A stretch of DNA of 64,000 nt, taken from positions 298,306-362,305 of the forward strand of contig CAZCYZ010000001.1 of assembly GCA_964503465.1 (NCBI GenBank), written 5' to 3'. This DNA comes from an uncultured Gammaproteobacteria bacterium (GTDB taxonomy: Bacteria > Patescibacteriota > Microgenomatia > UBA12405). Every line of letters starts with the position of its first letter. Positions within the stretch are counted from its first letter, which is position 1. The translations under genes and the position numbers were made by a program. Below the pieces are notes generated by a model. It had not been told where the DNA came from. It did no database searches and saw only the letters and a list, made by a program, of their open reading frames with translations. Shown here piece after piece: positions 12,118 through 60,468 of this stretch.

Positions 12118-12137
12118 CATGATAAAATACTTCATTC

Positions 12138-28232: not shown

Positions 28233-28314
28233 ATATGTACAATAAATAAGATTACAGGCTATTATACCGAACCTTTGGTAGCTTGTCAACCACGGCTTTG
28301 CTATACTCTTAGAC

Positions 28315-43519: not shown

Positions 43520-44336
43520 CACTTTAAGTATTATTATTCCCAGCTGGAATACTGCCGATATTACCTGTCGTTGTCTCAAAAGTATCCATCGTCACTTAAA
43601 ATTTATTGGACCAGAGATAATCGTTGTCGACAACGGTTCCACCGATGATTCCGTACTAAAAATTAAGAAATTAAAAAGTTCATTGAAAGTTAAGAAGTTA
43701 AAACTAATTCTTAATTCCAAGAACTTGGGTTTTTCAAAAGCTAACAATATTGGTGCCAAGCACGCTACCGGCAACTTCCTCTTCTTTCTTAATTCTGACA
43801 TGGAAATTGTCGATCATAGCCTGACTAAAATGATCGATTTTCTGGTCACTCAAAAAAATGTAGGCGTTATTGGCCCCAAATTTTTGAATCCCGATCACTC
43901 ACCTCAACCATCAGTATTTCCACCTCAAACTCCACTTAATGCTTTCCGCGAGTTTTGGCTTCACCAAGCCAACAAATATTCAAAATTTCTCCCCGTCACC
44001 ACCAAGCCTTCTTCTTCTTGGGCAATTTCCGGCGGTGCTCTACTAATTCAGACTACTGTCTTCAATCAAATTGGTGGTTGGGATGAACGTTATTTTTTTT
44101 ACTATGAAGATCTTGAATTATGCCGTCAAATCAGAAATCTAGGCCTAGATATTGTTTTTTTTCCTCAAACCACCGTTATTCATCGTCATGGTTTTAGTGG
44201 CCGACATCTATCTTCAACCAGCAATCAATGGCGCCGTCTTATCCCCAGTAGTGTTAAGTATCACGGTGCCTTAACCCACTATCTCATTAATTTCATTATT
44301 TGGTCGTCACAAAAATGTCATTTCGTTTCATTTTGA
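43512..44336 (+). CDS. GT2 glycosyltransferase
   Basis: LSIIIPSWNTADITCRCLKSI...IIVVDNGSTDDS and FLNSDMEI. Confidence 0.7.
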   Translation: MNNTLSIIIPSWNTADITCRCLKSIHRHLKFIGPEIIVVDNGSTDDSVLKIKKLKSSLKVKKLKLILNSKNLGFSKANNIGAKHATGNFLFFLNSDMEIVDHSLTKMIDFLVTQKNVGVIGPKFLNPDHSPQPSVFPPQTPLNAFREFWLHQANKYSKFLPVTTKPSSSWAISGGALLIQTTVFNQIGGWDERYFFYYEDLELCRQIRNLGLDIVFFPQTTVIHRHGFSGRHLSSTSNQWRRLIPSSVKYHGALTHYLINFIIWSSQKCHFVSF

Positions 44337-45556
44337 TTTTGGGTTTTTGTGTTCGACTCATGCTGCTATTAATCTCGGCCTCTCATCCGGATGTCGGTAA
44401 TCATCTCGACTGGGGAAATAAATTTTGGCAATACGGCCCAAATACTTTCTATCAGCAATCGATTTGGAAGGTCTCCTGGCCAAATCAACCAATTGGTAGT
44501 ATCTACCTTTTTGCGGCTCTCTCCTGGATCAATCAAAAAACCTTTTCCTTTTTTTGGTATCTCAACACTCAATACCCTATTTTTCCATCAAAGCTAATTC
44601 CCATCCTTGAGGCCAATCTTCATGTTTGGTTAGTCAAAATCCCGTTTCTAGCTGCCGATATCCTGTTGGCCTATTTAATATATCTTGCCACCAACAAACG
44701 AAAAATATTTTCAGTGTTGTTTCTATTCAACCCGGCAGTAATCTATAACTCAACTGTTTGGGGTCAAACAGATTCTCTTATTAATTTACTTTCTTTGGCC
44801 GGAATTTTTTTAGTCTATCATCGCCAATTTTTGGGAGGCACGTTTCTTTTCTTAGGATCTCTACTTTTTAAAATGTCACTTCTAATTTATTTACCTGTTT
44901 TTATTTGGCTCCTTTTTCTCTACCGTCGTGATTGGCTCAAATGGTCTATAGCCATACTCCTATTTTTGGCCCTAACTATAGTTTTAGCGATTCCATTTTC
45001 AATCAATCAAAACCCACTCACCTGGCTATCCCATCTATATCGCGACCTAGTTTTTAATCGTCAAGGACACATGCTCAATGGTAATGCTTTTAATCTCTGG
45101 TTAATTGTTTTTGGTGTTAGTTTAAGTCGACTCGACAATTATCCCATCTTTGGTTTTCCAACCTCATTAATTGCCTTCATCATATTTGGGCTAAGTTTCT
45201 TGCCTCTGGCTTCCAAATATGTTCGCCAAGAATCCTCGCTCAAAAACATCTGGAATTTTCTTTTTTTAACATCTTTTGCCAGTTTTCTCTTTCTGACCAA
45301 TATGCATGAACGTTATTTTTATCCCATCATGCCTCTTTTACCAATACTTCTTTATTATCGTCTAATCAACTTTCAGCTTTTTATATTCCTCAGCCTTACC
45401 CATCTCCTTAATCTTTATAATCTTTGGTTTTATCCTCTCATTCCCTGGATCAAATTAACTCTAGAATCCTTTAATTATCTTCTCCCGCGCCTATTATCTT
45501 CGCTCCTTATCATCATTTACCTTAAATTTTGGATAAAATATATACAAAGTGAATAG
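44315..45556 (+). CDS. polytopic membrane protein, GT-C-like (DUF2029/GT87-like)
   Basis: About 413 aa and multi-TM. HPDVGNHLDWGNKFWQ sits in loop 1. Confidence 0.4.
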   Translation: MSFRFILILGFCVRLMLLLISASHPDVGNHLDWGNKFWQYGPNTFYQQSIWKVSWPNQPIGSIYLFAALSWINQKTFSFFWYLNTQYPIFPSKLIPILEANLHVWLVKIPFLAADILLAYLIYLATNKRKIFSVLFLFNPAVIYNSTVWGQTDSLINLLSLAGIFLVYHRQFLGGTFLFLGSLLFKMSLLIYLPVFIWLLFLYRRDWLKWSIAILLFLALTIVLAIPFSINQNPLTWLSHLYRDLVFNRQGHMLNGNAFNLWLIVFGVSLSRLDNYPIFGFPTSLIAFIIFGLSFLPLASKYVRQESSLKNIWNFLFLTSFASFLFLTNMHERYFYPIMPLLPILLYYRLINFQLFIFLSLTHLLNLYNLWFYPLIPWIKLTLESFNYLLPRLLSSLLIIIYLKFWIKYIQSE

Positions 45557-47147
45557 GTGGTTGTTACTAGTCTTATTAGTAGCTTTTTTCGTTAGAGTCT
45601 ATCGACTAGACACCTTGACCCTTTTTGGTGACGAAATTGATGTTGGCAACCAAGCCTATTCACTCCTGACTACCGCCAAAGACTATCGAGGTAACCTTCT
45701 ACCTAGTTATCTTCAGTCGTTTACTGAGTCACGCGCTCCTTTGTTAATCTATTTAACCGTTCCCTCAGTCGCCATTTTTGGCCGCAATGAATATGGGGTC
45801 AGATTACCAGCTGTAGTTTTTGGTCTCGCTTCCATTTTAGGTTTCTATCTTCTTTCATATCGTCTCACTAAATCAAACAAGATCTCTCTTTTGGCCAGTC
45901 TTCTTCTTTCAGTCACCCCTTGGCATTTTCATTACAGCCGCGCTGCCTTTGAGGTCACCCTACTTTTGTCTTTACTTATTTTTGCCACTTGGTTTTATCT
46001 TCAGTCAAAGCCAATTACCTCTCTGGTTCTTTTTGCTCTTTCTTTTTATACCTACAACACCGCCAACGTTTTTACTCCACTGCTTCTCCTGTTTCTCTGT
46101 CTAACCCACCATCTTCCTTTCAAAAAAGTTTTTCCCGGTCTAATCTTATCCCTGATTGTGGTTCTGCCATTACTCTTTCAAATCATTCTTGGTCAAGCCG
46201 GTAATCGCTTCAGTCTCATTAGCGTCTTTAATAGTTCCCAAATCATTAACCAGATTGTTGATCAACGAATCTCCGTCTCTTCCGGCCCCCCATCTTTTTT
46301 TGAAAGAATCTTTCACAACAAACTAATTGCCTATCCAGTCACCATCACCACCAATTACCTTACCAGTTTTTCTCCCCAATTTATTTTTTTTAACGGTGAC
46401 CCCAACCCACGCCACCAAGTTCCCAACTTTGGTCCGTTACTTTTGATCTTCGCTCCCTTACTGATTATCGGACTGTTAAAATATCATCAAAAGTATCCCC
46501 TATTTCTTTTTTGGTTGTTGATTTCTCCTATTGCCTCATCGCTAACCGTTGATGGTGGTCAACATGCCACCAGACTTTTCACTATGCTTCCTCCACTAAT
46601 ATTTTTTACCACCATCGGCCTTCAGTCTTTAAACTTTAAAACTCTGGCCTTACTCACCCCACTCATTTTTATGAATTTCACTCTCTATCTTCATCAATAT
46701 TTTGTTCACCTTCCCAAAATTAATTTTTCCAGTTGGAATTATGGTCAAAAGTATCTTTATTCCACCCCCATTCCTCCATCATCACCAGTGTATGTCAGTA
46801 ATACCAATTTCGATTCGCTCAATTCTTATATTTTTTATCAACATCAAAATTCCCAACTTACTCAAGACCCTTCGTTTAGCGACGTGGAACAAGCCAATGT
46901 CATTGACAACCTTCCCGGATTTAAACTTAACCCCAATACTTATTTTATTAACAATTGGCAAACCCCCGACACTCTCAACCTCATTCAGCAAACGGCCAAA
47001 AAAGGCAATATATATTTCCTTCTTCAGCTTAAAGATATTCCCGGTGATTGGGACCTAACCAAAAGCCCACTTCCAGGTTTTGTCACTCTTAATACCGTCT
47101 ACTTACCCAATCACCAAATTTACGGTCAAGTTATTCAAAAACTGTGA
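45549..47147 (+). CDS. GT-C ArnT/PMT-like membrane glycosyltransferase, tandem paralogue 1
   Basis: GTG start overlapping the upstream stop. TLFGDEIDVGNQAYSLL carries the DE motif. About 11 TM helices and a C-terminal soluble domain. Confidence 0.6.
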   Translation: MNRWLLLVLLVAFFVRVYRLDTLTLFGDEIDVGNQAYSLLTTAKDYRGNLLPSYLQSFTESRAPLLIYLTVPSVAIFGRNEYGVRLPAVVFGLASILGFYLLSYRLTKSNKISLLASLLLSVTPWHFHYSRAAFEVTLLLSLLIFATWFYLQSKPITSLVLFALSFYTYNTANVFTPLLLLFLCLTHHLPFKKVFPGLILSLIVVLPLLFQIILGQAGNRFSLISVFNSSQIINQIVDQRISVSSGPPSFFERIFHNKLIAYPVTITTNYLTSFSPQFIFFNGDPNPRHQVPNFGPLLLIFAPLLIIGLLKYHQKYPLFLFWLLISPIASSLTVDGGQHATRLFTMLPPLIFFTTIGLQSLNFKTLALLTPLIFMNFTLYLHQYFVHLPKINFSSWNYGQKYLYSTPIPPSSPVYVSNTNFDSLNSYIFYQHQNSQLTQDPSFSDVEQANVIDNLPGFKLNPNTYFINNWQTPDTLNLIQQTAKKGNIYFLLQLKDIPGDWDLTKSPLPGFVTLNTVYLPNHQIYGQVIQKL

Positions 47148-48721
47148 AAATAAAAATTATTTTAGCCACATTAATTGTCCTTGGCACATTTTTGCGATTT
47201 TACCGTTTAGGTGATCTTCCTAATTCCTATACTCCCGACGAAATCGCTCAAGGGTACACCGCATATTCAATCATTAAAACCGGCCACGACGAGTGGGGTG
47301 ATCATAACTTTTTATCCCTCCGCTCTTTTGGGGATTTCAAGCCAAGTCTTCAAACCCTACTTATGATCCCTTTCGTCAAGGTTTTTGGTCTTACTCCATT
47401 TGCCATCCGTCTTCCTAATGCTGTTCTTTCTATCCTTTTAATCCCGCTTACATTTGTTTTGGCTCAAAAACTCCTTTTTAACTCTTCCGTTTCCATACTA
47501 GCTACTCTGCTAGTTACCCTCTCTCCCATTACACTTCCTTTGTCACGCCTTGCCCTTGAGGCTAATCTCTTGGTAATCATTAATCTGATTGCTGTTATCC
47601 TTTTTTTGACCAGTCACCGTTATTTCTCACTCTTATTTTTTAGTTTGAGTTTAATCACCTATCATTCAAGCAAAATACTATTTCCACTAATTTTTATCAC
47701 ACTAATTCTCTTCTACAAACGCAGTCGTCGCCTAGTTACTTTGGCTCTAATTTTTTACGTTACCGTCTCACTGCTAACATCTTTCAATCGTACCACTGAT
47801 ATCGCTATCTTTAATCCTACCGATTCTTGGTCATCAGTTTCTGAATCACGTTTCCAGGCTACCAAATCAGGCCTTCCTGACTCCATTAGTCGCATATTTA
47901 ATAATAAGGTCACTTATACATTTTTTCTTTTTGCACATAATTATCTTTCTTATTTTTCTCCTCAGTTCTTAGCCACCAGTGGTGCCGGCGAAACCACTTA
48001 TGGCATGATCCCAGGGCAGGGGATTTTAGGTATCATCCCTTTTTTGGGTCTTTGTTTAGCACTCGTTTTTCTTCTTAGAACTAAGAATAAATCACTCTTG
48101 TTTCTTTTTGTAATTGTTCTGATTACTCCCATTGCTGCCGCCTTGTCAAAAGGTAGTTATTCCGCCAATCGCCTAAGCTCCATCAGCCCCTACATTCAAA
48201 TACTCGCCGCCTACGGTCTTTTTCAATTATTTCAGCTTCGTCATCGCTGGCTCAGTCTACTTCTTGTGGCATTTCTTTCTTTTGAAATAGGAAATTTCCT
48301 GGTTACTTATTTCTTTCGGGCCAATCAGATCCTCGCCCCAGGCATGCTTTATGGCCATCGTCAAGCTCTCGAATACCTTCGTCAATATTCCAATTCAACT
48401 ATTATCTATTCTCGTCGCCTTTCTGAACCGCAAGCATATGTCAGTTTTTTTAACCAAGTTGACCCCTTTATTGTCCAACAGGCCTCAACCCAATGGCTTA
48501 ATTATCAAGGCAAAGGCCTTAAGTTTCTGGACCAACTAGGTGAATACCATCTTCAAAATTATCTTTTTAAAGAAATTAACTTTTCCTCCGATAGTCAAAT
48601 ACCCAACTCCATCCTGGTTGGTCGCCCAGAAGAGTTTCCCGGTGTCACCCCAAGTAAAATAATTTTCTATCCGGACTTCAATCATCTTAGCCCAGCCATT
48701 TATATCTATCACTCTCAATGA
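47144..48721 (+). CDS. GT-C ArnT/PMT-like membrane glycosyltransferase, tandem paralogue 2
   Basis: GTG start (GTGA overlap). YTPDEIAQGYTAYSIIKTGHDEWG...RSFGDFKP. Confidence 0.65.
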   Translation: MKIKIILATLIVLGTFLRFYRLGDLPNSYTPDEIAQGYTAYSIIKTGHDEWGDHNFLSLRSFGDFKPSLQTLLMIPFVKVFGLTPFAIRLPNAVLSILLIPLTFVLAQKLLFNSSVSILATLLVTLSPITLPLSRLALEANLLVIINLIAVILFLTSHRYFSLLFFSLSLITYHSSKILFPLIFITLILFYKRSRRLVTLALIFYVTVSLLTSFNRTTDIAIFNPTDSWSSVSESRFQATKSGLPDSISRIFNNKVTYTFFLFAHNYLSYFSPQFLATSGAGETTYGMIPGQGILGIIPFLGLCLALVFLLRTKNKSLLFLFVIVLITPIAAALSKGSYSANRLSSISPYIQILAAYGLFQLFQLRHRWLSLLLVAFLSFEIGNFLVTYFFRANQILAPGMLYGHRQALEYLRQYSNSTIIYSRRLSEPQAYVSFFNQVDPFIVQQASTQWLNYQGKGLKFLDQLGEYHLQNYLFKEINFSSDSQIPNSILVGRPEEFPGVTPSKIIFYPDFNHLSPAIYIYHSQ

Positions 48722-50247
48722 TTTTAATACTCTTCTTAATTGCTCTTATTCCTCGAATTATCTCCATCAGTTTCCTTCCTCCAAGCCTCAATTGGGATGA
48801 AGTTTCGCATGGTTACAACGCTTATTCCCTACTTTCTACCGGCAAAGACGAGTGGGGACACTCTCTGCCTCTTATTTTTCAAGCCTATGGTGACTACAAA
48901 CTACCACTATATGTTTATCTCACCACCATTCCGGTTGCCATTTTCGGGCTTAATCCTTTGTCGGTTCGTTTAATTTCAATTTTGGCTGGTAGTCTTCTCC
49001 CAATTGTTATCTATTTTTTCCTCAAAAAGTTCATTTCTTCAACTTCAGCCTTTATTACCAGTCTTGTGATTGCACTCTCTCCCTGGTCAATTTTTCTTTC
49101 CCGAATCGCCGTCGAAGCCAACCTTTTTCTTTTCCTCTATATCACCTCGCTCTACTTCCTTTCTCGACACCGGTTCGCTTATAGTACTTTTTTTTACGCT
49201 CTATCACTTCTAACCTACAACAGCAGCCGGGTACTTATATTTCCATATTTTTTAGCCACTTTTTTCATTGCCCGCCAACAGCATTATTCATTTCTAAAAA
49301 ACTTACCAAAATTTATCTTTCCTGCACTAGTATTCGTCGTTGTTCTCATTCAGTCTTCTTCACCCGCAGGTCAAGCTCGCTATCAGTGGGTCTCTATTCT
49401 TGATTCCGGTGCCATCAACCATATTGAACAACTTCGTCAAAAATACCCCAGAATTCTAGTTAACAAAGTTACCTATTTTACCTATCAAACAACCAAGAAT
49501 TATCTGGCTCATTTTAACCCTGCCTACTTATTCTTAAATGGGGGATCACATTATCAATTCAACATCCCTCAGTTTTATCTTATCAGTCCTCTACTTATAC
49601 CATTCCTCTTGCTTGGTTTTTTGGCACTCAAAAAATACCCCTTAATACTCTTCTTTCTTCTTGTTTCACCACTCCCTTCTGCTATTACCCGCGACGCTCC
49701 ACAAATTCTTCGCAGTCTAGCCTTTTTACCCCTTATCTCAATGGTCATTGGGCTTGGAATTAATCACAGTCTCAAAAATAAACCTTTCTTTTTCCTGAGT
49801 TTATTTTTTCTCTTTTTAACATTAGTCATTTCTCAAGTCCAATTTTGGTCAAGTTACCAAGAATATCGATATCAATATTCTCAGTCTTGGCAGTACGGTC
49901 ATCAACAACTAGTCAATAGCGTTAAATCAAAATACTCACGGTACCAAAAAATAATCGTCACCAAAAGATATGGTGAACCACATGAGTTTTTTCTTTTCTT
50001 CTGGCCATGGCCTCCTCAAGATTACCAAAAAAACAAACTATGGGACTATCATGCCAACTGGTACTGGATTAATGGTTTTGATAAGTTCACCTTCGTCAAC
50101 GATTGGGACATCAAAGACCTTTCTATCGCACCATCTACTTTATTAGTCACCAGTCCAGGTAATTTCCCGTCGGGAAGCCACCGCCTCCTCGAGACTATTA
50201 ATTTCCTTGACGGCCAACCAGCTTTTGATCTTATTAGCTATGAATAA
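48718..50247 (+). CDS. GT-C ArnT/PMT-like membrane glycosyltransferase, tandem paralogue 3
   Basis: ATGA overlap. NWDEVSHGYNAYSLLSTGKDEWG...QAYGDYKLP. The C-terminus has YGEPHEFFLFFWPWPP. Confidence 0.65.
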   Translation: MILILFLIALIPRIISISFLPPSLNWDEVSHGYNAYSLLSTGKDEWGHSLPLIFQAYGDYKLPLYVYLTTIPVAIFGLNPLSVRLISILAGSLLPIVIYFFLKKFISSTSAFITSLVIALSPWSIFLSRIAVEANLFLFLYITSLYFLSRHRFAYSTFFYALSLLTYNSSRVLIFPYFLATFFIARQQHYSFLKNLPKFIFPALVFVVVLIQSSSPAGQARYQWVSILDSGAINHIEQLRQKYPRILVNKVTYFTYQTTKNYLAHFNPAYLFLNGGSHYQFNIPQFYLISPLLIPFLLLGFLALKKYPLILFFLLVSPLPSAITRDAPQILRSLAFLPLISMVIGLGINHSLKNKPFFFLSLFFLFLTLVISQVQFWSSYQEYRYQYSQSWQYGHQQLVNSVKSKYSRYQKIIVTKRYGEPHEFFLFFWPWPPQDYQKNKLWDYHANWYWINGFDKFTFVNDWDIKDLSIAPSTLLVTSPGNFPSGSHRLLETINFLDGQPAFDLISYE

Positions 50248-51820
50248 AGAAAAATTTATCCTAATCGGCATTCTTCTTGGCTCAGTTCTAATCAGAACCT
50301 ATCGGGTAGGGGACACCCCCCCACTTCTCTGGGACGAGGCCGCTCTTGGTTATAATGCCTATTCCATTCTTCAAACCGCCCATGACGAACATGGCCAGTT
50401 GTTACCCCTAATTTTTAAATCCTTCGGCGACTATAAACCAGGAATTTATATTTACTTAACTCTTCCTTGTATTGCTATTTTTGGACTCAACCCTTTTTCA
50501 GTTCGCTTGCCATCTATTTTGTCTGGTTCTCTTATCCCCCTACTTCTATATTTACTTATTCGACAATTACTTCCTCGGCAAAGAAATCTCGCCACACTTT
50601 CAGCTCTGATTATGGTTTTTAATCCATTCAACATTCATTTTTCTCGAGGAGCATGGGAAACTAATATCCTTACCTTTCAAATTTTATTGGCCAGTTTACT
50701 TTTTTTCCGTAAAAAATACCTTACTTCAGCCATTATTTTTGGTATTTCTCTCTACACTTATCAATCAGCTAAGCTTTTAAGCCCCCTTATAATCTTAGCT
50801 CTAATCATTTCCACTCAAAGTAATCTCAGATCTATCTTAAATAAATTTTTCTTACCCCTATTGACCATCTCTATTCCCTTGATTTACGGGATTGTTTTTG
50901 GTCAAGATTCAAACCGCCTCAAAGTTATGAGTCTTCTCTCCTATCCTCGATCGACCACCGAAACTCAAACCATCATTACAGAATCAAATATCACCAACTA
51001 TCAACTTTTTCATAACCAACTGATTTTCTTTAGTCGAAATTTCTTTTCCCGCTACTTTAATCATTTTTCTCCTCGCTTTCTTATTTTTGAAGGAGACTGG
51101 CAAAACCCTCGCCATTCCGCCCCATATGTCGGTCTTCTTCTTTATCCTTCAATCGTTTTTTTTCTCATCGGTTTGTTATCTTCAGATTATCGATTACCAG
51201 CTACCAAGCTCTTACTTCTCTGGTTAATTTTAGCCCCTATCCCCTCAGCTCTTACCCGCGATTCCGTCTCCGCCGTCAGAGCCTTACCGCTTTCAATCCC
51301 CTCAGTCTATTTTATTGCCACCGGCATTAATATTTTTCTTTACCGATATAAGTCCATCACTATCTACTGTTTGTTGTTTACTGTCTACATACTTTCATTT
51401 ACCTATTATTCCGATCTCTATCTAAACCACATGGTTAAAAGATCACCCAAAGACTTTTTATACGGTTATAGCCAAGCTATAAACTATGTCATCCAAAATC
51501 AATCCAAATATCAACAGGTTATTTTTACTCAATTTTATGGCCAACCATATATCTATTACCTTTTTTACAGTCACTATTCACCATCCTCCTATCAACAACA
51601 AAATAGTTACAATCAAAACGGCCTTGATACGGGAGTTGTGTCCCAAATTGGTAATGTTTATTTTAAAGAACCCCAATTTAACCAAGTCGAACTTCAGCCA
51701 GGAACACTAGCCATTTTTTCCCACGACGAAGTTCTTCGTCAAAACATTGATCCCCAAACTCTTATCTCCCTAAGTCCTATTGGTGGTTATTCAACTTTCT
51801 ATGCCTATGAAAACCCCTAA
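50240..51820 (+). CDS. GT-C ArnT/PMT-like membrane glycosyltransferase, tandem paralogue 4
   Basis: The start was set at the ATG at 50240. LWDEAALGYNAYSILQTAHDEHG...KSFGDYKP. The C-terminus has YGQPYIYYLFYSHYSP. Confidence 0.65.
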   Translation: MNKEKFILIGILLGSVLIRTYRVGDTPPLLWDEAALGYNAYSILQTAHDEHGQLLPLIFKSFGDYKPGIYIYLTLPCIAIFGLNPFSVRLPSILSGSLIPLLLYLLIRQLLPRQRNLATLSALIMVFNPFNIHFSRGAWETNILTFQILLASLLFFRKKYLTSAIIFGISLYTYQSAKLLSPLIILALIISTQSNLRSILNKFFLPLLTISIPLIYGIVFGQDSNRLKVMSLLSYPRSTTETQTIITESNITNYQLFHNQLIFFSRNFFSRYFNHFSPRFLIFEGDWQNPRHSAPYVGLLLYPSIVFFLIGLLSSDYRLPATKLLLLWLILAPIPSALTRDSVSAVRALPLSIPSVYFIATGINIFLYRYKSITIYCLLFTVYILSFTYYSDLYLNHMVKRSPKDFLYGYSQAINYVIQNQSKYQQVIFTQFYGQPYIYYLFYSHYSPSSYQQQNSYNQNGLDTGVVSQIGNVYFKEPQFNQVELQPGTLAIFSHDEVLRQNIDPQTLISLSPIGGYSTFYAYENP

Positions 51821-53396
51821 GATATTCCTTACCATTATTTTTTGCCTTGCTACTTTTTTGAGACTGTATCATCTTGGTTTCTATCCTACTCTCAATCCTG
51901 ACGAGGCCGCCCTAGGTTACAATGCTTTTTCGCTTCTTCAAACAGGCAAAGATGAGCATGGTGTTTCCTGGCCACTTCATCTTAAATCATTTGGTGACAA
52001 CAAACCGGCCGGCTACACCTATCTTCTTCTTCCGTTTATCAAAATTATTGGCCTTACCCCATTGGCTGTTCGACTCCCCAATGCCATTTTTTCAATTTTG
52101 GCCATCTATATTCTATATAAACTTATTTTGCTTTTAACCTCAAATCAAAATCTTTCCCTTTTAACCTCATTTATTCTAGCTATCAATCCATGGCATATTC
52201 ACTTCTCTCGAGGAGCTTGGGAGTCATCGACTGCCCTGACCCTTGTCCTTCTGGGAATCTATTTTTTCTATCTTCATCTCAAAAATTTCAAACTACTCTA
52301 CCTTTCGATACTATTTTTTGTTCTCTCGCTCTACTTCTATCATTCTGCTCGTATTATTGCTCCACTTCTGCTTCTATCTCTATGTTTTGTCCATAAATCA
52401 TACTTCATAAATCACATTTCAAAGATATTTCTTCCTTTTGTTTTTGGCGCTATTCTGGTTCTTCCTGTCCTATTCTCTTTTCTCAAAAACGGTGGTGCCA
52501 CCCGTTTTAGCGGCGTTGGCCTAACGGCCGATTATGGCCCTATCTCGCGGGCGGAAGAACTTCTAAACCACCACATGAATATCAAGCTCGTCAATCGCAT
52601 TATTCACAACAAAAGAACCCTATATTTTATCTCCTGGGGGCAAAAGTATTTTTCTCATTTTGATATCAATTTTCTCTTTGTTAATGGTGATGAAGTTCCT
52701 CGCTCCAAAGTTCCCGAAATGGGCCAATTCTACCTTCTTGAATTTCCATTTTTACTTCTCGGAGTTTTTTTCTTGTTTAATTCTCCCCAATTTAAAACTT
52801 TAAAATTTCTCACCCTAAATTTGCTCGTTGTCTCCCCCCTAGCATCATCATTGACCTTCCAGGCCCCTTCCGCTCTTCGATCTCTACCTCTAAGTATCCC
52901 CCTAACTGTTCTCATTTCTCTTGGCTTATATCAAGCCATCAACCGATTTCCTAAAGTTAGTTACAGCTTATTATTCATAGGCTATCTTCTTTCAATTACC
53001 TATTATCTTGATTCCTACTACGTTCATTACCAAAAACGTTATCCCTTTGCCTGGAATTACGGCTTTGATCAAGTTACTTCCTATCTTCAATCCCAAAAAA
53101 ACAATTACCAAAACATTTATCTTACTAATAAATATGACCAGCCATATATTCTTTATCTCTTTTTCTCCCAATATCCGCCCCAACAACTTCATTCTCAAAT
53201 TAAGTTGACTCCACCCGACCAATTTGGTTTCTCCACTGTTCATCAAATCGATAATCTTCATTTTGAAAAAATAGACTGGAACAACATCCCCTCAGACTCC
53301 CTAGTTATCACGGCTGATGAACCCATCCCAATAGACCCCATCAAAATCATTAACTTTCCCAATTACGCCCCAGGATTTAAAATATATATCAAATGA
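51807..53396 (+). CDS. GT-C ArnT/PMT-like membrane glycosyltransferase, tandem paralogue 5
   Basis: The start was set at the ATG at 51807. LNPDEAALGYNAFSLLQTGKDEHG...KSFGDNKP. The C-terminus has YDQPYILYLFFSQYPP. Confidence 0.65.
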   Translation: MKTPKIFLTIIFCLATFLRLYHLGFYPTLNPDEAALGYNAFSLLQTGKDEHGVSWPLHLKSFGDNKPAGYTYLLLPFIKIIGLTPLAVRLPNAIFSILAIYILYKLILLLTSNQNLSLLTSFILAINPWHIHFSRGAWESSTALTLVLLGIYFFYLHLKNFKLLYLSILFFVLSLYFYHSARIIAPLLLLSLCFVHKSYFINHISKIFLPFVFGAILVLPVLFSFLKNGGATRFSGVGLTADYGPISRAEELLNHHMNIKLVNRIIHNKRTLYFISWGQKYFSHFDINFLFVNGDEVPRSKVPEMGQFYLLEFPFLLLGVFFLFNSPQFKTLKFLTLNLLVVSPLASSLTFQAPSALRSLPLSIPLTVLISLGLYQAINRFPKVSYSLLFIGYLLSITYYLDSYYVHYQKRYPFAWNYGFDQVTSYLQSQKNNYQNIYLTNKYDQPYILYLFFSQYPPQQLHSQIKLTPPDQFGFSTVHQIDNLHFEKIDWNNIPSDSLVITADEPIPIDPIKIINFPNYAPGFKIYIK

Positions 53397-54145
53397 CCAT
53401 TTCTGTTGCCATCGCCACTTACAACGAAGAGGCCAATATCCAACGCTGTTTAAAAGCAGTTTCCGACTGGGTCAACGATATCGTCATTTATGATGGTCAA
53501 TCTTCCGATAATACGGTTAAAGTTGCTAGAACTTTCAAGAAAGTCCAAATCATATCTGGCCCTAATCATCAAATTTTTCATATCAACAAACAAGCTGCCA
53601 TTGACGCCTGTAAAAGTGATTGGATTCTTCAGCTTGATGCCGACGAAGTTGTTACCCCACAATTGGCCACCGAAATCCAACAAATTATTCAAAATACCCC
53701 CCACAATGGTTTTTGGCTTAAACGCAAAAACTATTTTCTTGGAACCTTTCTTACTAAAGGGGGCACATACCCTGACTCCACTCTCAGGCTTTACCGACGA
53801 GGAAAAGGGGCACTACCCTGTCACGATGTCCACGAACAGGCTATTGTCGACGGTTCCACCTCCAGCCTCCAAAATGATCTTTTACATTATGATTCTCCCA
53901 CCTTTAGTCGCTTTATCTTTAGAAACGATCATTATAGTAGCATTCTTGCCACCCAAATTACTAATCCAAATTTTGTCAGTTATTTCTTTTTAAAACCATG
54001 CCTCACTTTTTTTTCCATTTTTCTCCGGCACCGAGGTTATATTGATGGTTTCCCTGGTTTTGTCTTTGCTTTTTATTCTGCTTTGCGATTTCCTTCGGCC
54101 TATGTTAAATACTGGGAAAACCATTATGCCAAAAATCGCCATTGA
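53393..54145 (+). CDS. GT2 glycosyltransferase
   Basis: ISVAIATYNEEANIQRCLKAV...VIYDGQSSDNT and QLDADE. Confidence 0.7.
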   Translation: MTISVAIATYNEEANIQRCLKAVSDWVNDIVIYDGQSSDNTVKVARTFKKVQIISGPNHQIFHINKQAAIDACKSDWILQLDADEVVTPQLATEIQQIIQNTPHNGFWLKRKNYFLGTFLTKGGTYPDSTLRLYRRGKGALPCHDVHEQAIVDGSTSSLQNDLLHYDSPTFSRFIFRNDHYSSILATQITNPNFVSYFFLKPCLTFFSIFLRHRGYIDGFPGFVFAFYSALRFPSAYVKYWENHYAKNRH

Positions 54146-55184
54146 CATATCGCCAACTATCGATGGTAACGCAGTTCGTGGTATTGGCTACTACACCAAG
54201 AATTTAGTCTCTGCAATTCAATCCGAGGTCAAAACCAACCCACACTACCACAATTGGCAAATCAATCTAATCACCAGTCCACAATCGTTAACCTCTAATT
54301 ATCAACTTATCCACTACCCATACTTCGATCCTTTCAAGCTTACTCTGCCCCACCGACAATCAGTTCCCACCATCGTCACTGTTCCCGATTTGATACCCAT
54401 CCAATTTGCCAAACATTTTCCGGTTGGTGTTAAGGGTCAAATCAAATGGTTAATTCAAAAAAACCAACTCAAAAAAACGACCTATATCATCACCATTTCT
54501 CACTATGTCAAACATGTCATCAGGAATATCATTGGTTACCCCAAGGATCGTATTTTTGTTACCTGGCTAGACGCGTCTTTAATGTCTCAGCCAGTTAAAA
54601 ACAACTTTAAAACCATGGTCCAAAAATATAATTTACCGCCTAAATTCATCCTCTATGTCGGTGACGTTAATTGGAACAAAAATATTCCCAATCTAGTTCG
54701 CGCCTGTTTATCTCTAGGCTATCATTTGGTTATCGCTGGTGCTTCAGCCACTAAATCCGTCCCAGACCATCCTTGGACCCAAGATATCATTTGGTTGCAG
54801 CAACAAAAATCTCCTTTCCTCCACCTTCTAGGATTTGTTCCAGATGAAGACAAACCTTATCTCTTCAAATTAGCCACCATTTACTGTCAACCGTCTTTTT
54901 CCGAAGGCTTTGGTATTCCCCCTGTCGAAGCCATGAAGTCTGGTTGTCCAGTTGCTTATAGTCAAGAAAGCAGTCTCCCAGAAGTCATGGATTTTTGCGG
55001 TGAGTTCTTTGATCCCTACTCTGTTGATTCAATTAAATCTAGTCTCCAAAAACTTTGGACCAACCAAAAGCTTCGTCAAAAATATATCCGGCTCGGTCTT
55101 GCCAGAGGTAAAGTTTTTGATTGGAAATATACCGCCCTTCAAACACTCGCCATCTATCAGCTAGCCTTATTAAATGAAAGATAA
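54126..55184 (+). CDS. GT4 (GT-B) glycosyltransferase
   Basis: The start was set at the ATG at 54126. C-terminal FSEGFGIPPVEAMKSGCPV. Confidence 0.65.
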   Translation: MPKIAIDISPTIDGNAVRGIGYYTKNLVSAIQSEVKTNPHYHNWQINLITSPQSLTSNYQLIHYPYFDPFKLTLPHRQSVPTIVTVPDLIPIQFAKHFPVGVKGQIKWLIQKNQLKKTTYIITISHYVKHVIRNIIGYPKDRIFVTWLDASLMSQPVKNNFKTMVQKYNLPPKFILYVGDVNWNKNIPNLVRACLSLGYHLVIAGASATKSVPDHPWTQDIIWLQQQKSPFLHLLGFVPDEDKPYLFKLATIYCQPSFSEGFGIPPVEAMKSGCPVAYSQESSLPEVMDFCGEFFDPYSVDSIKSSLQKLWTNQKLRQKYIRLGLARGKVFDWKYTALQTLAIYQLALLNER

Positions 55185-55977
55185 AAAACACTTTATCTCT
55201 GTTATTGTACCCATATATCAACAGGCCCGAACTATCCGTCAGGACCTTTATTCCATCTATGACACCCTCGAACAAATTCGATACGATTACGAAATTATTG
55301 CCATTGTTGACGGAACAAGCATCGATAATTCATACCAGGAAGCCAAGAAACTCAAACTCAAAAGACTAAAGGTTATCGGATATCCTCAAAATAAAGGTAA
55401 AGGTTATGCAGTCAGGTTTGGCATGGCACACACCACAGGCGATTACATTGCCTTTATTGATTCTGGAATGGATATTGATCCTAATGGTATTTCCATGATT
55501 CTAGAACACATGGAGTGGTATCAGGCCGATATTGTTGTTGGCTCAAAACGTCACCCGGCCTCACAAATCAACTACCCACTTCATCGTCGTATTATCAGTT
55601 TTGGTGCCCAATTAATTGCCAAATACCTACTTAACATTAATGTCACCGATACTCAGGTGGGGTTAAAGATTTTCCGCCGTCCAGTACTCGAAAAAGTTCT
55701 CCCTCGTCTTCTAGTCAAAACATTCGCTTTCGACCTCGAAATATTGTCTGTTGCTAACCGTTTAGGTTTTAGCAAAATTTACGAAGCCCCCATCAAAATA
55801 AATTTTGATTTCTCGGGATCTCATCTTCAGGGTAAATTCTTTCAAACCCTTCTTCTTTGCCTCAAAGATTCTTTGGCAGTTTTTTATCGCCTCCGGCTAC
55901 TTCGATACTACGATGATACCAGCAGAAGAAGGTGGAAATTTGATCCTCAACTTAAAATGCGTGTTAACATCGGTTAA
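55174..55977 (+). CDS. GT2 glycosyltransferase (DPM1/GtrB-like)
   Basis: ISVIVPIYQQARTIRQDL...IIAIVDGTSIDNS and FIDSGMDIDP. Confidence 0.7.
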   Translation: MKDKKHFISVIVPIYQQARTIRQDLYSIYDTLEQIRYDYEIIAIVDGTSIDNSYQEAKKLKLKRLKVIGYPQNKGKGYAVRFGMAHTTGDYIAFIDSGMDIDPNGISMILEHMEWYQADIVVGSKRHPASQINYPLHRRIISFGAQLIAKYLLNINVTDTQVGLKIFRRPVLEKVLPRLLVKTFAFDLEILSVANRLGFSKIYEAPIKINFDFSGSHLQGKFFQTLLLCLKDSLAVFYRLRLLRYYDDTSRRRWKFDPQLKMRVNIG

Positions 55978-56939
55978 TGTCACCACTACTTTTTTCAATT
56001 ATTATTCCCGTTAGGCTGAAAACTAATTATCTTCGCCAAACTCTCAAAAAACTCCAACAACAAACTTGCAAATCGTTTGAGGTCCTGGTCATAACCGACA
56101 AGTTGTCCGGCTCAGCCAACCCAGCTCAAAAACGTAATCTTGGTGCAAAAATGTCCCAAGGCAAATATCTTGCCTTCATAGATGACGACTCCTATCCTTC
56201 AAAAACCTGGCTGGAAAGTATCAATAAATTGTTTTCCCCTGGAATTGCCGCTGTTTGTGGTCCATGTCTTACCCCGGCCAGCGATAACATTTATCAAAAA
56301 GCTTCAGGGTTAGTTTGGAGCAGTTTATTGGGAAGTGGCGGTGCTGGCCTATATCGTAACAGTGTTCAAAAACCAATGTTCGTCGACGATTACCCGTCTG
56401 TTAATCTTATAGTCCGCAAAAATGACTTTACCGCCGTTAAGGGCTTTGATACCCACCACTGGCCCGGCGAAGATACAATCTTGTGCCTTAACTTAACTAA
56501 AAAACTTCACCAAAAGATTCTCTATCACCCATCAGTCATTGTCTATCATCATCGTCGTCCAGTTTTGATTCCCCATCTTCAGCAAATATCTCGCTATGCC
56601 CTACATCGCGGACACTTTGCCCGCGTATTTCCTGAAACCAGTTTTAAAATTGGTTATCTGATGCCCAGTTTGTCCGTAATATACTTCATCGTTTTTCCAA
56701 TTTTATTACCAGTTCTTCGACTCTATTACTTTATTCCTTTTATTGTCTATTTATTGCTTATTTTCTTTACTTTTATTTCTTTTCTTAAGAAAAACAATTT
56801 TTTGACTAGTATTTTGGCTACCATCACCATCCCCTTGACTCATCTTTATTACGGTATACTCTTTCCTATTGGCTTTTTCAAAAAAAACCTATCTTTCAAA
56901 GCCCACTCCACTAACAAACATGGCTACATCGGCGGTTAA
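55977..56939 (+). CDS. GT2 glycosyltransferase with C-terminal TM helices
   Basis: FSIIIPVRLKTNYLRQTLKKL...VLVITD and FIDDDS. The C-terminal hydrophobic segment has 2-3 TM helices. Confidence 0.6.
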   Translation: MSPLLFSIIIPVRLKTNYLRQTLKKLQQQTCKSFEVLVITDKLSGSANPAQKRNLGAKMSQGKYLAFIDDDSYPSKTWLESINKLFSPGIAAVCGPCLTPASDNIYQKASGLVWSSLLGSGGAGLYRNSVQKPMFVDDYPSVNLIVRKNDFTAVKGFDTHHWPGEDTILCLNLTKKLHQKILYHPSVIVYHHRRPVLIPHLQQISRYALHRGHFARVFPETSFKIGYLMPSLSVIYFIVFPILLPVLRLYYFIPFIVYLLLIFFTFISFLKKNNFLTSILATITIPLTHLYYGILFPIGFFKKNLSFKAHSTNKHGYIGG

Positions 56940-58368
56940 CTTTTTAATATCTATTTCGTACCCACCCCTATCATCACCCAAAGGTGTTCCCTTCCTTTCA
57001 CAAAACCGCCAATTTCAGTGGACCAATACAGACAATGTTATTTATCCCGTTGTTCCCGCCTACGCTGCCACCCTTCTTGTCAAAAATGGCTACCATGTTT
57101 TTTGGGATGATGCCATTGCTCAAAAACTTACCAAACAACAGTGGTTGGCTCGAATCATTAAACAACGCCCAAACCTCATTGCTATTGAAACCAAAACCCC
57201 AGTTATCAAAACACATTGGCGAATTATCAACACCCTTAAACAGAAGCTGCCTAAAACAATTATTGTTTTAATGGGTGACCATGTTACCGCTCTCCCCCAG
57301 GAATCTTTCCAGCATTCTAAGGTTGACTATGTTCTCACCGGTGGAGACTATGATTTCATGCTCCTTAACCTTGCTAATCACCTTACTAAAAAAACAAGTT
57401 TGGAACCAGGATTTTACATGTCAAGTTCCAACACGGGTCAATTCAAGCCTCACCATCATCTTGGTCAACTTCCAGTCCTTGACCGCCAGCTCACCCAATG
57501 GCAACTGTATTCTCGCCATAATACCAACTATAAGTACAAACCCGGTGCTTATATTATGTCAGCTCGTGATTGTTGGTGGGGCAAGTGCACCTTTTGTTCC
57601 TGGACTACTCTCTATCCTTCCTATCGCACTCTTTCTGTTAAACAAACTATCAATGAAATCAAAAACTTGGTTAAATTGGGTACTCGGGAAATATTTGACG
57701 ATGCTGGTACTATTCCAGTTGGCCCATGGCTTGGTGATCTTTGCCACCAGCTAGTTGATCAAGGACTAAATCAGAAGGTCACAATTAGTTGTAATATGCG
57801 TTTCGGTGCTCTCAATCAACAGCAATATCAATTAATGGGTCAGGCGGGTTTTCGTTTCCTTCTCTATGGACTCGAGTCAGCCAACCAAATGACCATTGAT
57901 CGGCTCAAGAAAAACATCAAAATTGACTGGATCAAAAGAGACCTAAAATGGGCAAAACAAGCTGGTCTCGAACCACACGTTACTATCATGATCGGTTACC
58001 CTTGGGAAGATTTATCTCAAGCCAAAAACACCCTATCTTTATCAAAGGAACTTTTTCGTCTTGGCCTAGTTGATAGCATGCAAGCCACCATTGTCATCCC
58101 TTATCCTGGTACCCCGCTTTTTGACTATTGTCAAAAAAACCAATTGCTTCTATCAACCAACTGGAATGACTACGATATGCGTCAACCAATAATGAAATCA
58201 CCTTTAACTCACCATCAGCTCCAAACATTAATTGATTCTCTTTTTAAATCAGCCTGGGAACCGAAGTTCCTTATTCGCAAAGTACTCTCTATTAGGTCAA
58301 TCGACGATATCAACCATCTAGTCAACTATGCCATTAAATTCTTACAAAAACTCCGTGACTTTAGTTAG
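56920..58368 (+). CDS. B12-binding-domain radical SAM protein (variant CX4CX2C cluster motif)
   Basis: The start was set at the ATG at 56920. N-terminal Rossmann-like B12-binding-type region (VPAYAATLLVKNGYHVFWDD). Then MSARDCWWGKCTFCSW, then a TIM-barrel-like region. Confidence 0.5.
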   Translation: MATSAVNFLISISYPPLSSPKGVPFLSQNRQFQWTNTDNVIYPVVPAYAATLLVKNGYHVFWDDAIAQKLTKQQWLARIIKQRPNLIAIETKTPVIKTHWRIINTLKQKLPKTIIVLMGDHVTALPQESFQHSKVDYVLTGGDYDFMLLNLANHLTKKTSLEPGFYMSSSNTGQFKPHHHLGQLPVLDRQLTQWQLYSRHNTNYKYKPGAYIMSARDCWWGKCTFCSWTTLYPSYRTLSVKQTINEIKNLVKLGTREIFDDAGTIPVGPWLGDLCHQLVDQGLNQKVTISCNMRFGALNQQQYQLMGQAGFRFLLYGLESANQMTIDRLKKNIKIDWIKRDLKWAKQAGLEPHVTIMIGYPWEDLSQAKNTLSLSKELFRLGLVDSMQATIVIPYPGTPLFDYCQKNQLLLSTNWNDYDMRQPIMKSPLTHHQLQTLIDSLFKSAWEPKFLIRKVLSIRSIDDINHLVNYAIKFLQKLRDFS

Positions 58369-59374
58369 TATCATTATCCCCACCCTCAATGCTGGTAGGG
58401 TCCTAATACCATGTCTCAAATCGATCGTCAAACAGAATTATCCACATACTGAGATCATTATTGCCGATGGTGGTTCAACCGACAATACCATTGCTATTGC
58501 CAACAAATTTAAAACCAAAATTGTTACCAATCAACTCAAGACCGCCGAAGCTGGTAAGGCCATCGGGCTCAAATATGCCAAAGGTCAATATATCGCCTTC
58601 ATCGATTCGGACAACATCCTCCCATATACGAACTGGCTGTCAACTATGCTAATTCCATTTAAAGACTCCGATATCGTCTGTACCGAACCAATCCGCTTTA
58701 CCTATCGTCGCAACGGGGGATTTATCGAGCGCTACGGTGCTCTTCTTGGGGCCAATGATCCTTATGCATGGTTCACTGGCGTTTATGATCGCTATAGTTA
58801 TCTTACCAACAATTGGACAGGTCTAAAATTAGATCAAATAGACAATCATAAATATATATCTGTCAATTTTAATAATAGTCAAATTCTCCCCACCATTGGT
58901 GCTAATGGGACTATCTTTAGGGCTAGTTTTCTCAAAAAGTACTTTTTCGGTCACTATCTTTTTGATATTGACATTCTTTCTTTGGCTTTACAGAAGAAAA
59001 ATACAGTTAAGGTTGCCAAACTAAAAACTGGCATTATCCATACATATTGTGAGTCATCAATTTCAAAATTCATTCGTAAACAAACCCGTCGTTTAACTGA
59101 CATGTATCAATACCAATCCATTCGCCAATATAACTGGCACCAAAAAAATAACATTTTCTCACTCGTTAAATCTAACTTTCGCTTTGCTCTCTACTCTATT
59201 CTCGTTCTTCCCGCGCTATTCGATTCTGTGCGTGGTTACCTCAAGAAAGCCGACTCGGCTTGGTTTTTCCATCCAATCGCCTGTTTTTTGTCTTTTATCA
59301 TTTATACCAGAGTAACCGTGGCTCATCTTCTTGGTATAAAACAGTATACCAGTAGACAACAATGGCAACAGTAA
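58328..59374 (+). CDS. GT2 glycosyltransferase
   Basis: VSIIIPTLNAGRVLIPCLKSI...IIIADGGSTDNT and FIDSDN. Confidence 0.65.
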   Translation: MPLNSYKNSVTLVSIIIPTLNAGRVLIPCLKSIVKQNYPHTEIIIADGGSTDNTIAIANKFKTKIVTNQLKTAEAGKAIGLKYAKGQYIAFIDSDNILPYTNWLSTMLIPFKDSDIVCTEPIRFTYRRNGGFIERYGALLGANDPYAWFTGVYDRYSYLTNNWTGLKLDQIDNHKYISVNFNNSQILPTIGANGTIFRASFLKKYFFGHYLFDIDILSLALQKKNTVKVAKLKTGIIHTYCESSISKFIRKQTRRLTDMYQYQSIRQYNWHQKNNIFSLVKSNFRFALYSILVLPALFDSVRGYLKKADSAWFFHPIACFLSFIIYTRVTVAHLLGIKQYTSRQQWQQ

Positions 59375-60468
59375 AACCAGGAATCTTAATCTTAAGTCCA
59401 TTTTTCTCTCCCAACATTGGTGGTGTCGAAACTCATCTTGATGATTTGGTTGCGGGTCTTCAAAATTTTTCTGTTTTTGTATTTTCTTACTCTCCAATTA
59501 CTACCCCCAATGTTCGTTATCAAATTTTTGAAAAACGAGGAAACCTCCAAATCGTCCGCCTTCCCCACTTTGGTAAAAATCTCTTCCACCAGCTAGAAAA
59601 ATATTCCATCCTTGACTTTTTATATCTCACACCATACCTTTTAATCTTCTCATTTTTATGGATGCTTTTTAACTCATCCAAAGTTAAGACAATTCATTCT
59701 CATGGTTTTAATGCCGCTTTTATTGGTAATCTCCTGGCCACTTTCTTTCGCAAAAAACATGTTACCTCAACTCATGCTGTTTACGAACACATTCATGGTC
59801 TCAGTTTAAAGTTAGTCGTTGCCACCCTTTCCGCCGTCGACCACATTCTCTGCCTTTCCCAAGCCTCACAAAAACAACTTTTAAGCTGGGGACTAAGTCC
59901 TGCCAAAACAAGCCTTTATCAATATTGGATTAACTTAAATAATTTTGTTCCAGTCACCACTCCACCCAAAAAATTTACTGTTCTTTATGTTGGCCGCTTA
60001 ATCACAAAGAAGGGAATCCGATTAATCCTTCAATCAGCCATCAATATTCGTTCTGCCCAATTTAACTTTATCGGTACTGGACCAGCAGAAGAAACCATTA
60101 GAAGGTTTTCCAAAAAATACAAAAATATTAATTTCACTGGCCCCATCCCCAATTCCTATCTACCTCAGTACTATCAACAAGCATCCATACTCTGCCTTCC
60201 GTCACTTTATCCCGAAGGTTATGGCCGAGTTGTCATGGAAGCGGTTGCGTCTGGACTACCTGTTATCGCCTCCAACACCGCTGGTCTCAAAGAAGCTTTA
60301 AGCTCCAAAGTTGCTATTCTTATCAAGCCAACTGTCAAAAATCTCACTTTGGCTATTAAAAAACTCCAGCATAAACAAACTTATAATCATCTTCGTCGAA
60401 ACTGCCGTCACTATGCCCTTGCAAAGTTTAGCTCCTCAAATATAAAATCGATCACCAGGTTCTATTAA
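59362..60468 (+). CDS. GT4 (GT-B) glycosyltransferase
   Basis: ILSPFFSPNIGGVETHLDDL, and C-terminal EGYGRVVMEAVASGLPVIASNTAGLKEAL. Confidence 0.7.
   Translation: MATVKPGILILSPFFSPNIGGVETHLDDLVAGLQNFSVFVFSYSPITTPNVRYQIFEKRGNLQIVRLPHFGKNLFHQLEKYSILDFLYLTPYLLIFSFLWMLFNSSKVKTIHSHGFNAAFIGNLLATFFRKKHVTSTHAVYEHIHGLSLKLVVATLSAVDHILCLSQASQKQLLSWGLSPAKTSLYQYWINLNNFVPVTTPPKKFTVLYVGRLITKKGIRLILQSAINIRSAQFNFIGTGPAEETIRRFSKKYKNINFTGPIPNSYLPQYYQQASILCLPSLYPEGYGRVVMEAVASGLPVIASNTAGLKEALSSKVAILIKPTVKNLTLAIKKLQHKQTYNHLRRNCRHYALAKFSSSNIKSITRFY

Follow-up and report, generated by a model that had tools for sequence, protein, structure and literature searches.

Within the 64,000-nucleotide (nt) stretch of DNA analyzed here (the window; contig CAZCYZ010000001.1 of GenBank assembly GCA_964503465.1), five consecutive genes form an array that probably encodes anciently diverged, non-redundant glycosyltransferases of the PMT_2 family with the glycosyltransferase C (GT-C) fold, which would use lipid-linked sugars to build a surface glycan, each making its own linkage or serving its own acceptor. 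The genes lie head to tail on the + strand at positions 45549-53396 of the window and, on the open reading frame (ORF) list with alignment-supported starts, encode proteins of 509-532 amino acids (aa). Member 1 (45549-47147, 532 aa, GTG start) is the most divergent. It is followed by member 2 (47144-48721, 525 aa), which begins at the GTG of a GTGA, and member 3 (48718-50247, 509 aa), which begins at the ATG of an ATGA. Member 4 (50240-51820) is 526 aa long when read from its ATG and 537 aa from an upstream TTG at 50207, and member 5 (51807-53396) is 529 aa from its ATG and 538 aa from a TTG at 51780. Alignment with orthologs backs the ATG starts at 50240 and 51807.

An earlier note on this DNA, made from the letters and an ORF list, had described five ORFs with overlapping junctions, and both the ORF list and our reading of the DNA bear this out at the same coordinates and on the same strand. 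The members overlap one another by 4-14 nt: members 1 and 2 share a GTGA (47144), members 2 and 3 an ATGA (48718), and the overlaps at 50240 and 51807 span 8 and 14 nt. The flanking genes are joined to the array in the same way, with 8 nt shared between the end of the upstream gene (44300-45556) and the start of member 1, and an ATGA at 53393 shared between member 5 and the downstream GT2 gene. Scans for promoters and terminators over 27000-64000 found as many sites as chance would give, and no signal inside the array. Since the five genes are translationally coupled, we suggest that they are co-expressed as a single unit. As for base composition, GC skew is negative in every 2-kb interval of 1-64000, even though nearly all genes are on the + strand. 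It is strongest at 46001-54000, where a GC skew of -0.32 to -0.40 and a negative AT skew run across the five GT-C genes, a pattern probably due to the T/C-rich codons that very hydrophobic proteins use and not to replication strand bias.

The five proteins align over their full length with 28-35% pairwise identity and 43 invariant columns, and each passes a Pfam gathering threshold, so their homology is far beyond chance and the proposed paralogy is upheld. PMT_2 (PF13231, cut-off 26.1 bits) is matched by member 1 (38.8 bits, E = 1.4e-9), member 3 (33.9 bits, E = 4.6e-8), member 4 (36.6 bits) and, marginally, member 5 (26.3 bits; also PMT at 1e-3), while member 2 passes the cut-off of PMT (PF02366) with 38.3 against 22.7 bits (E = 1.5e-9). 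Structural comparison, with member 4 as the modeled protein, gave a GT-C fold whose top matches were ArnT, Pmt4, Pmt2, STT3 and ALG12. The polytopic membrane fold superposes on solved GT-C enzymes, as in the GT-C_A class of the superfamily. The model has 11 predicted transmembrane (TM) helices and a C-terminal alpha/beta domain. For an 11-TM arrangement with the N terminus inside and the C terminus outside, lysines and arginines in the short loops number 7-13 on the cytoplasmic side and 2-4 on the external side. The modeled topology places the first loop, a long loop (residues 221-300) and the C-terminal domain of about 125 residues all outside the membrane.

The earlier description of these proteins as "ArnT/PMT-like" holds at the superfamily level, given the Pfam PMT_2 and PMT matches, the GT-C fold and the first-loop motif alignment described below, but it fails as strict membership, as the specific tests for ArnT (GT83) and PMT (GT39) were both negative. 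Strict ArnT was rejected on the predicted 11 TM helices in place of 13, the non-conserved RYA motif, the lack of an arn gene context and the lack of a match to a curated model; NCBIfam gave sub-threshold matches to Agl23, LA_3751 and AZOBR models and none to an ArnT model. Strict PMT was rejected because the proteins carry neither the MIR domain nor the PMT_4TMC module, with no Pfam match to either at E<=0.01 in any of the five members. Public annotation already names the genes "glycosyltransferase family 39" or "phospholipid carrier-dependent glycosyltransferase", and the profile of the family matches 28,933 clusters of 50% identity at E<=1e-3 and 5,432 at E<=1e-30.

The strongest conservation lies in the first external loop, which in member 4 (50327-50440, + strand; residues 30-67) reads LLWDEAALGYNAYSILQTAHDEHGQLLPLIFKSFGDYKP and has an equivalent in all five members. 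We regard D32-E33 of this loop as the putative catalytic pair and K66 as a putative phosphate-binding residue. The D-E pair after TM1 is invariant in 5/5 members, in 48 family sequences and in all orthogroups, and the array proteins thus have the conserved acidic residue(s) (D-E or DxD) with which the first external loop of GT-C enzymes starts after TM1. In a MAFFT alignment with E. coli ArnT, the family's (P/W/G)DE falls in register with PDETRYAE, GD(Y/F)KP with YFEKP, and FGLNPFSVRL with FGANNFGVRA. ArnT, a protein of 13 TM helices, carries RYA and YFEKP in its first periplasmic loop, and the Lys of YFEKP is essential (PMC5377068). The active-site pair is D55/E56 in C. metallidurans ArnT and D77/E78 in Pmt1, and K85 contacts the carrier phosphate (PMC7801869). 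Because these motifs of known role align with those of the array, the N-terminal motif is the catalytic first external loop of GT-C enzymes, on the basis of motif-level alignment and fold. Members 2, 4 and 5 match the K-P of YFEKP with GD(Y/F/N)KP, and member 3 carries GDYKLP; the residues aligned with the non-conserved RYA are A-L-G or GYN. The N-terminal motif proposed earlier is complete in members 2-5 but partial in member 1, which retains the D-E, A, S, T, D and G positions (FGDE...DYRG...SFTESRAP). A second motif had been proposed near the C terminus of all five proteins; Y(G/D)(Q/E)P...LF is clear in members 3-5 but weak in member 2 (LSEPQAYVSFF) and essentially absent from member 1.

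Away from the first loop, the paralogs have drifted apart in regions that each orthogroup preserves. We compared regional identity between paralogs with that between orthologs, the latter taken from the window against the related loci L002 and L012. The first loop is 47% identical between paralogs and 72-89% between orthologs, as against 32% and 43-72% for TM2-7 and 26% and 42-67% for TM8-11. The long external loop (residues 221-300; 50900-51139, + strand, in member 4) varies among paralogs (23-26%) and is conserved within each orthogroup (51-84%). The C-terminal extracytoplasmic domain (residues 402-526 of member 4; 51443-51817, + strand), which carries the YGQPYIYYLFYS motif and has alpha/beta secondary structure in the model, is 20% identical between paralogs and 47-69% between orthologs, with 62-69% for that of member 4; member 1 has a different, longer domain here. 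External-loop signatures mark the orthogroups: SGAGETTYGM(I/L)PG in group 2, FEGDWQNPRHSAPY in group 4 (d) and NGDEVPRSKVPEMGQ in group 5 (e). The divergence of the C-terminal domains claimed in the earlier note is therefore confirmed, this being the least conserved region between paralogs (20% against 47% for the first loop). The long external loop, however, has a like pattern and is an equally good candidate for the specificity-determining part. A common catalytic loop combined with external regions private to each paralog fits, to judge from the sequences, the pattern expected of distinct acceptor or linkage specificities, although it is not proof, and we infer that the members differ in specificity.

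Homologs place the source organism in Candidatus Shapirobacteria (Microgenomates, candidate phyla radiation). In other Shapirobacteria-type contigs, the best match of each member is the gene at the same position, with 45-68% identity compared with about 30% to its paralogs. Members 1 to 5 are 48, 49, 52, 55 and 59% identical to their counterparts in L002 and 63-68% identical to those in L012. By member, the orthologs of member 1 are 63% (L012), 48% (L002), 46% (L015), 48% (L016) and 45% (L017) identical and the same-position orthologs of member 2 are 49-65% identical, while member 3 has orthologs in all loci examined (36-66%) and member 5 in every locus (56-68%). A phylogeny proposed in the earlier note is provided by a neighbor-joining tree, which resolves five orthogroups with members 4 and 5 as sisters. 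Positional orthology across contigs means that the duplications are old. What had been read as tandem duplication is indeed a paralogous tandem array, but positional orthology and the tree speak against a recent local expansion, which we rejected.

The ratio of nonsynonymous to synonymous substitution (dN/dS) is about 0.09-0.17 to the orthologs of the closest genome, with dS saturated (1.6-2.9). As dS ranges from 1.6 to more than 5 or is undefined for the paralogs and for all ortholog pairs, a value of about 0.1-0.2 for the closest genome is to be taken as a rough upper bound, and the dN/dS comparison between paralogs that the earlier note had proposed is meaningless. All comparisons indicate purifying selection.

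The related loci came from a genome-contig scan with one protein as query, which returned 5 loci, and from ten look-ups of encoding contigs, of which nine returned loci and that for the window's own protein found nothing. A scan of all fetched loci with the family profile found 3 to 7 members per array among related contigs. The full collinear 1-2-3-4-5 set is present in L002/L003, L012 and L015, and also in L004, where the left end of the contig truncates it. L001, L006, L009/L010, L011 and L014 have a 3-4-5 core together with a divergent 'a'-type member. Six to seven members occur in L016 and L017, where an extra sixth paralog and an ORF of about 197 aa are inserted between the orthologs of members 3 and 4 (small ORF at 7787-8386 and paralog at 8383-10020 in L016; 7813-8403 and 8400-10004 in L017). 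The array in the window, which the earlier note had called more extensive than the multi-PMT or multi-AftA/EmbC arrays of actinobacteria, is thus not the largest. The inserted ORF (196-199 aa) has no Pfam match, and the extra paralog shares about 31-32% identity with member 5. Ahead of its member 5 ortholog, L016 further carries a seventh member (11598-13235) and a PTPS_related gene. In L007, the member 3 ortholog is split into overlapping frames at 833-1978 and 1789-2655, so that it is a pseudogene with a frameshift or else the sequence of this metagenome-assembled genome (MAG) contains an error. L004, L006 and L007 (CAYSTF010000025.1, CAZIHS010000002.1 and CAZWUG010000046.1) carry collinear array orthologs with 49-57% identity, and the Gammaproteobacteria titles of these MAG records are probably generic or wrong. 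Taken together, the array is a conserved syntenic, operon-like unit with a variable upstream end.

The array is embedded in a glycan gene cluster of at least 36 kb. From 28315 to the end of the window, the listed genes all read along the + strand and follow one another almost without spacers, and they include about ten GT2 and five GT4 enzymes as well as about 11 GT-C-type genes within 25 kb, array included. Directly upstream of member 1 is a sixth GT-C gene (44300-45556, 418 aa) of the ALG6/ALG3/PIG-M/PimE-like class, described as 'Gpi18-like'. Downstream, Pfam identified a module of seven genes (53393-60468): a GT2 at 53393 that resembles SunS/GmaR in its N-terminal part only, a GT4 at 54042, GT2 enzymes at 55174 and 55977, a B12-binding radical S-adenosylmethionine (SAM) protein at 56869-58368, a GT2 at 58328 and a GT4 at 59362. 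The order GT2-GT4-GT2-GT2-radical SAM-GT2 follows the array in L001, L002, L009, L011, L012 and L014-L017, and the conserved module is present in every locus that reaches far enough downstream; the radical SAM gene is kept downstream of the array in all related loci. The TTG listed as the start of the GT4 gene (54042) probably lies upstream of the true start, as it overlaps the GT2 gene (53393-54145) by about 100 nt and gives a protein of 380 aa compared with 352-374 aa for orthologs. A 167-aa ORF at 53490-53993 (+) lies wholly inside the same GT2 gene in another frame and looks spurious. Next in the cluster, and still among glycosyltransferases, are a carbamoyltransferase of the NodU/CmcH type (60468-62231, +) and a SAM methyltransferase (62228-62857, +), and along with the radical SAM protein these suggest that sugars are modified in unusual ways, for example by C-methylation or carbamoylation.

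The upstream part of the cluster, also on the + strand, opens with an ArnC-like GT2 (28315-29037; Pfam Glycos_transf_2). Its best PDB match is the Und-P-Ara4FN synthase ArnC (4.7e-13, residues 7-219), followed by Dol-P-Man synthase (DPMS) and GtrB. A GtrB-like GT2 assigned by Pfam (31819-32682, true start probably near 31903) matches GtrB (sll0501) best at 3.8e-13 and then archaeal DPMS at 2.4e-10. By sequence, these two enzymes are candidate synthases of polyprenyl-phosphate-sugar donors. Pfam scans of the cluster genes detected no ArnA/B/D/E/F-like gene, with the GT2 at 28315 as the sole ArnC-like one. Three polytopic membrane proteins (29016-30437, 30434-31909 and 32666-34099) are distant members of PMT_2. 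The last had been put forward as a related paralog of the array; it is a distant PMT_2 relative only, with 38 bits in BLASTP and a score below the 1e-20 level against the family profile, and we rejected it as a close paralog. They are followed by a PTPS_related (PF10131) membrane protein (34096-35760), a Wzx/MOP-type flippase-like membrane protein (35742-37187; Polysacc_synt_3 at 3.4e-43, Polysacc_synt at 6e-21) and a large polytopic membrane protein of 561 aa (37154-38839), for which Pfam gave no match at E<=5 and whose possible identities are polymerase, ligase or a further GT-C.

Outside the cluster, inspection by eye picked out an LCP (LytR-CpsA-Psr)-like protein at 22796-23806 (+), a sortase-like protein with a TCWP motif at 7941-8648 (-) and a surface protein at 27618-28322 (-) that ends in VPTTG followed by a hydrophobic stretch and a basic tail. 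These could be machinery and acceptor for wall-anchored glycoconjugates. A perfect 12/12 sigma-70-like promoter lies at 28289-28261 (-), within the surface-protein ORF and close to its listed start.

By analogy with ArnT, PMT, GacL/GtsC-type and endoplasmic reticulum (ER)-lumenal ALG enzymes, we propose the following mechanism. A polyprenyl-phosphate-monosaccharide would be made on the cytoplasmic face, likely by the ArnC-like and GtrB-like GT2 enzymes of the cluster, and then flipped outward. Outside the membrane, each array enzyme would then move the monosaccharide from the flipped carrier to one particular position of a cell-surface glycan or glycoconjugate under construction; D-E would act as catalytic base and as ligand of the metal, and K-P would hold the carrier phosphate. 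The core of this glycan or glycoconjugate would come from the cytoplasmic GT2/GT4 enzymes. The five members and the ALG6/PimE-like GT-C upstream would most likely make different linkages or use different acceptor positions. The lipid-linked donor, catalysis outside the cytoplasm and a glycan rather than a protein as acceptor are, like the distinct specificities, what we infer.

Several observations weigh against this proposal. Profile searches of PDB with alignments of 5 and 48 sequences returned no GT-C match, and neither hhalign of the family alignment with E. coli ArnT (probability 1.3%) nor phmmer (E>0.01) was significant, so the residue equivalences to solved GT-C enzymes rest on motif-level alignment and fold. 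Member 1 has ESRAP in place of GD(Y/F)KP and thus lacks the Lys of K-P, with an Arg nearby. The candidate donor synthases are 13-17 kb upstream of the array, beside other GT-C genes, and are without the C-terminal TM helices of ArnC and GtrB, and no GtrA-type flippase was found among cluster ORFs of at least 120 aa, the range of the scan. The upstream end of the array varies by lineage, so not every member is indispensable, and the acceptor could be a protein. More tentatively, we can imagine that the array and the other GT-C enzymes of the cluster (at least 11 in 25 kb), as a fixed series and possibly associated with each other, form an extracytoplasmic assembly line like that of the ER lumen, building most of a complex surface oligosaccharide stepwise from polyprenyl-phosphate-monosaccharides; we think this extension less likely than not.

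One rival reading departs from a glycan-building array in the acceptor. If the proteins acted as PMTs in the strict sense, each would O-glycosylate Ser/Thr of different secreted or surface proteins, such as pilins, S-layer or sortase-anchored proteins. We think this unlikely: MIR and PMT_4TMC domains are lacking, ALG12, STT3 and ArnT score equal to or above the PMTs structurally, and six different enzymes of this kind in one operon would be without precedent. The surrounding 15 cytoplasmic GT2/GT4 enzymes, Wzx-like flippase and sugar-modifying enzymes are also typical of polysaccharide assembly, a context to which the LCP-like gene upstream belongs as well. The tight coupling of the genes raises the separate question of whether the proteins work as one hetero-oligomeric complex, like Pmt1-Pmt2 or EmbA-EmbB, in which some members are mainly scaffolds or acceptor-binding subunits. 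Overlaps of 4-14 nt at all junctions imply that translation is coupled and that the proteins are made in roughly stoichiometric amounts, the genes strictly keep their order, and the K-P motif of member 1 is degenerate; moreover, known GT-C enzymes dimerize in this way (PDB 6p25/6p2r and 7bvc/7bvf, among the structural matches), and acceptor binding by small GT-C enzymes has been speculated to depend on partner proteins (PMC8035078). However, D-E and most invariant residues are kept in 5/5 members, so that none looks like a dead subunit, and arrays of 3, 5, 6 or 7 members speak against a fixed stoichiometry. A division of labor between catalytic and scaffold subunits is therefore not what we expect, although a complex is compatible with five non-redundant transferases and does not exclude them.

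The variation among related loci could instead mark a fast-evolving diversification cassette, in which copies are gained, lost or exchanged to vary the surface glycan and evade phage or host, and members are interchangeable or lineage-specific. Consistent with this, the number and identity of the upstream members vary by lineage (the 3-4-5 core plus 'a' in L001, L006, L009, L011 and L014), L016 and L017 hold extra sixth or seventh members and a small ORF, and member 3 is split in L007. We nonetheless find such a cassette improbable, since members 3, 4 and 5 are present in the same order in every locus covering their positions, at least six independent contigs carry all of members 1-5 collinearly with 45-68% identity, and we see no DNA-level repeat or recent duplicate and purifying selection in all comparisons. 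The thought that the array is an assembly artifact, produced by a collapsed or mis-assembled repeat, can be given virtually no weight: the paralogs are about 30% identical as proteins, independent assemblies from several samples and pipelines (JGI, ENA, Logan and NCBI) agree on the order of the five genes, and a collapsed repeat is excluded because 44300-54200 contains no direct DNA repeat longer than 26 nt. Five old, functionally distinct GT-C enzymes acting on a surface glycan remain the explanation we favor.

Bacteria of the candidate phyla radiation (CPR) combine tiny genomes with what is believed to be a life attached to other cells, and hardly anything is known of their surface chemistry. 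Our literature search on glycosyltransferases of CPR/Patescibacteria found no paper describing these arrays, and we consider a conserved array of 5-7 genes a modestly new architectural feature composed of enzymes from a well-known superfamily. With the superfamily well known and the genes already annotated as "glycosyltransferase family 39", the finding is useful rather than surprising, real but fairly ordinary. Its interest lies in the investment: at least 36 kb given to one glycan cluster, with at least six consecutive and about eleven genes in all for transferases of lipid-linked sugars, suggests that a complex, conserved surface glycan matters to CPR biology. The family is also large and without a characterized member, with about 5,400 clusters at 50% identity matching the profile at E<=1e-30, and the five orthogroups of the array offer a natural experiment on how GT-C enzymes gain acceptor and linkage specificity. 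An assembly line of the kind considered above, if true, would show in a CPR bacterium of minimal genome, where it is not known, a strategy familiar from the mycobacterial wall and from eukaryotic N-glycan and glycosylphosphatidylinositol synthesis, and may relate to the organism's dependence on host cells.

The nearest known counterparts are the multi-component transmembrane glycosylation systems of Gram-positive bacteria, in which the C55-P-sugar produced by a GT-A enzyme crosses the membrane through a GtrA- or Wzx-type flippase and its sugar is then added to a wall polymer by a PMT_2-type GT-C (PMC8035078; also PMC11127046). PMT_2-type GT-C enzymes, TM-less GT-A enzymes and Wzx-type flippases are all described parts of such systems (PMC8035078, PMC11127046). 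With GacL, GtsC, CsdD/CsdF, GtlB/GttB and YkcB (PMC8035078), the array has the PMT_2 family and a monoderm-type envelope in common, and its locus holds cytoplasmic GtrB/ArnC-like GT-A enzymes as candidate donor synthases and, as with GacI/GacK/GacL, a candidate flippase of the Wzx type. The predicted function, extracytoplasmic addition of single sugars to wall glycopolymers, is likewise similar. In contrast, the known systems have one GT-A per GT-C, whereas here five PMT_2 paralogs and an ALG6/PimE-like GT-C are coupled, with no adjacent GtrB-type partner or GtrA flippase among ORFs of at least 120 aa, and the array subfamily has a C-terminal domain and motifs of its own.

Other GT-C enzymes are further removed. 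ArnT differs in having 13 TM helices, where the model of the array protein has 11, and in its RYA motif, arnABDEF context and NCBIfam model; to our knowledge, Patescibacteria are not known to make lipid A. Compared with Pmt1/2/4 of GT39 and the actinobacterial Pmt, the array proteins carry a small C-terminal alpha/beta domain in place of MIR/PMT_4TMC and sit in a polysaccharide-type context, and they are far smaller than Emb and AftD and without the carbohydrate-binding modules of those proteins. For the ER enzymes ALG3/9/12/6/8/10 and for PimE, AftA-D and EmbA-C (embCAB), the parallel would be sequential action on one glycan, which for the array is a hypothesis. The setting also differs, as those pathways belong to eukaryotes (ALG) or actinobacteria (Emb/Aft), while the array is carried by a CPR bacterium with a genome of roughly 1 Mb.

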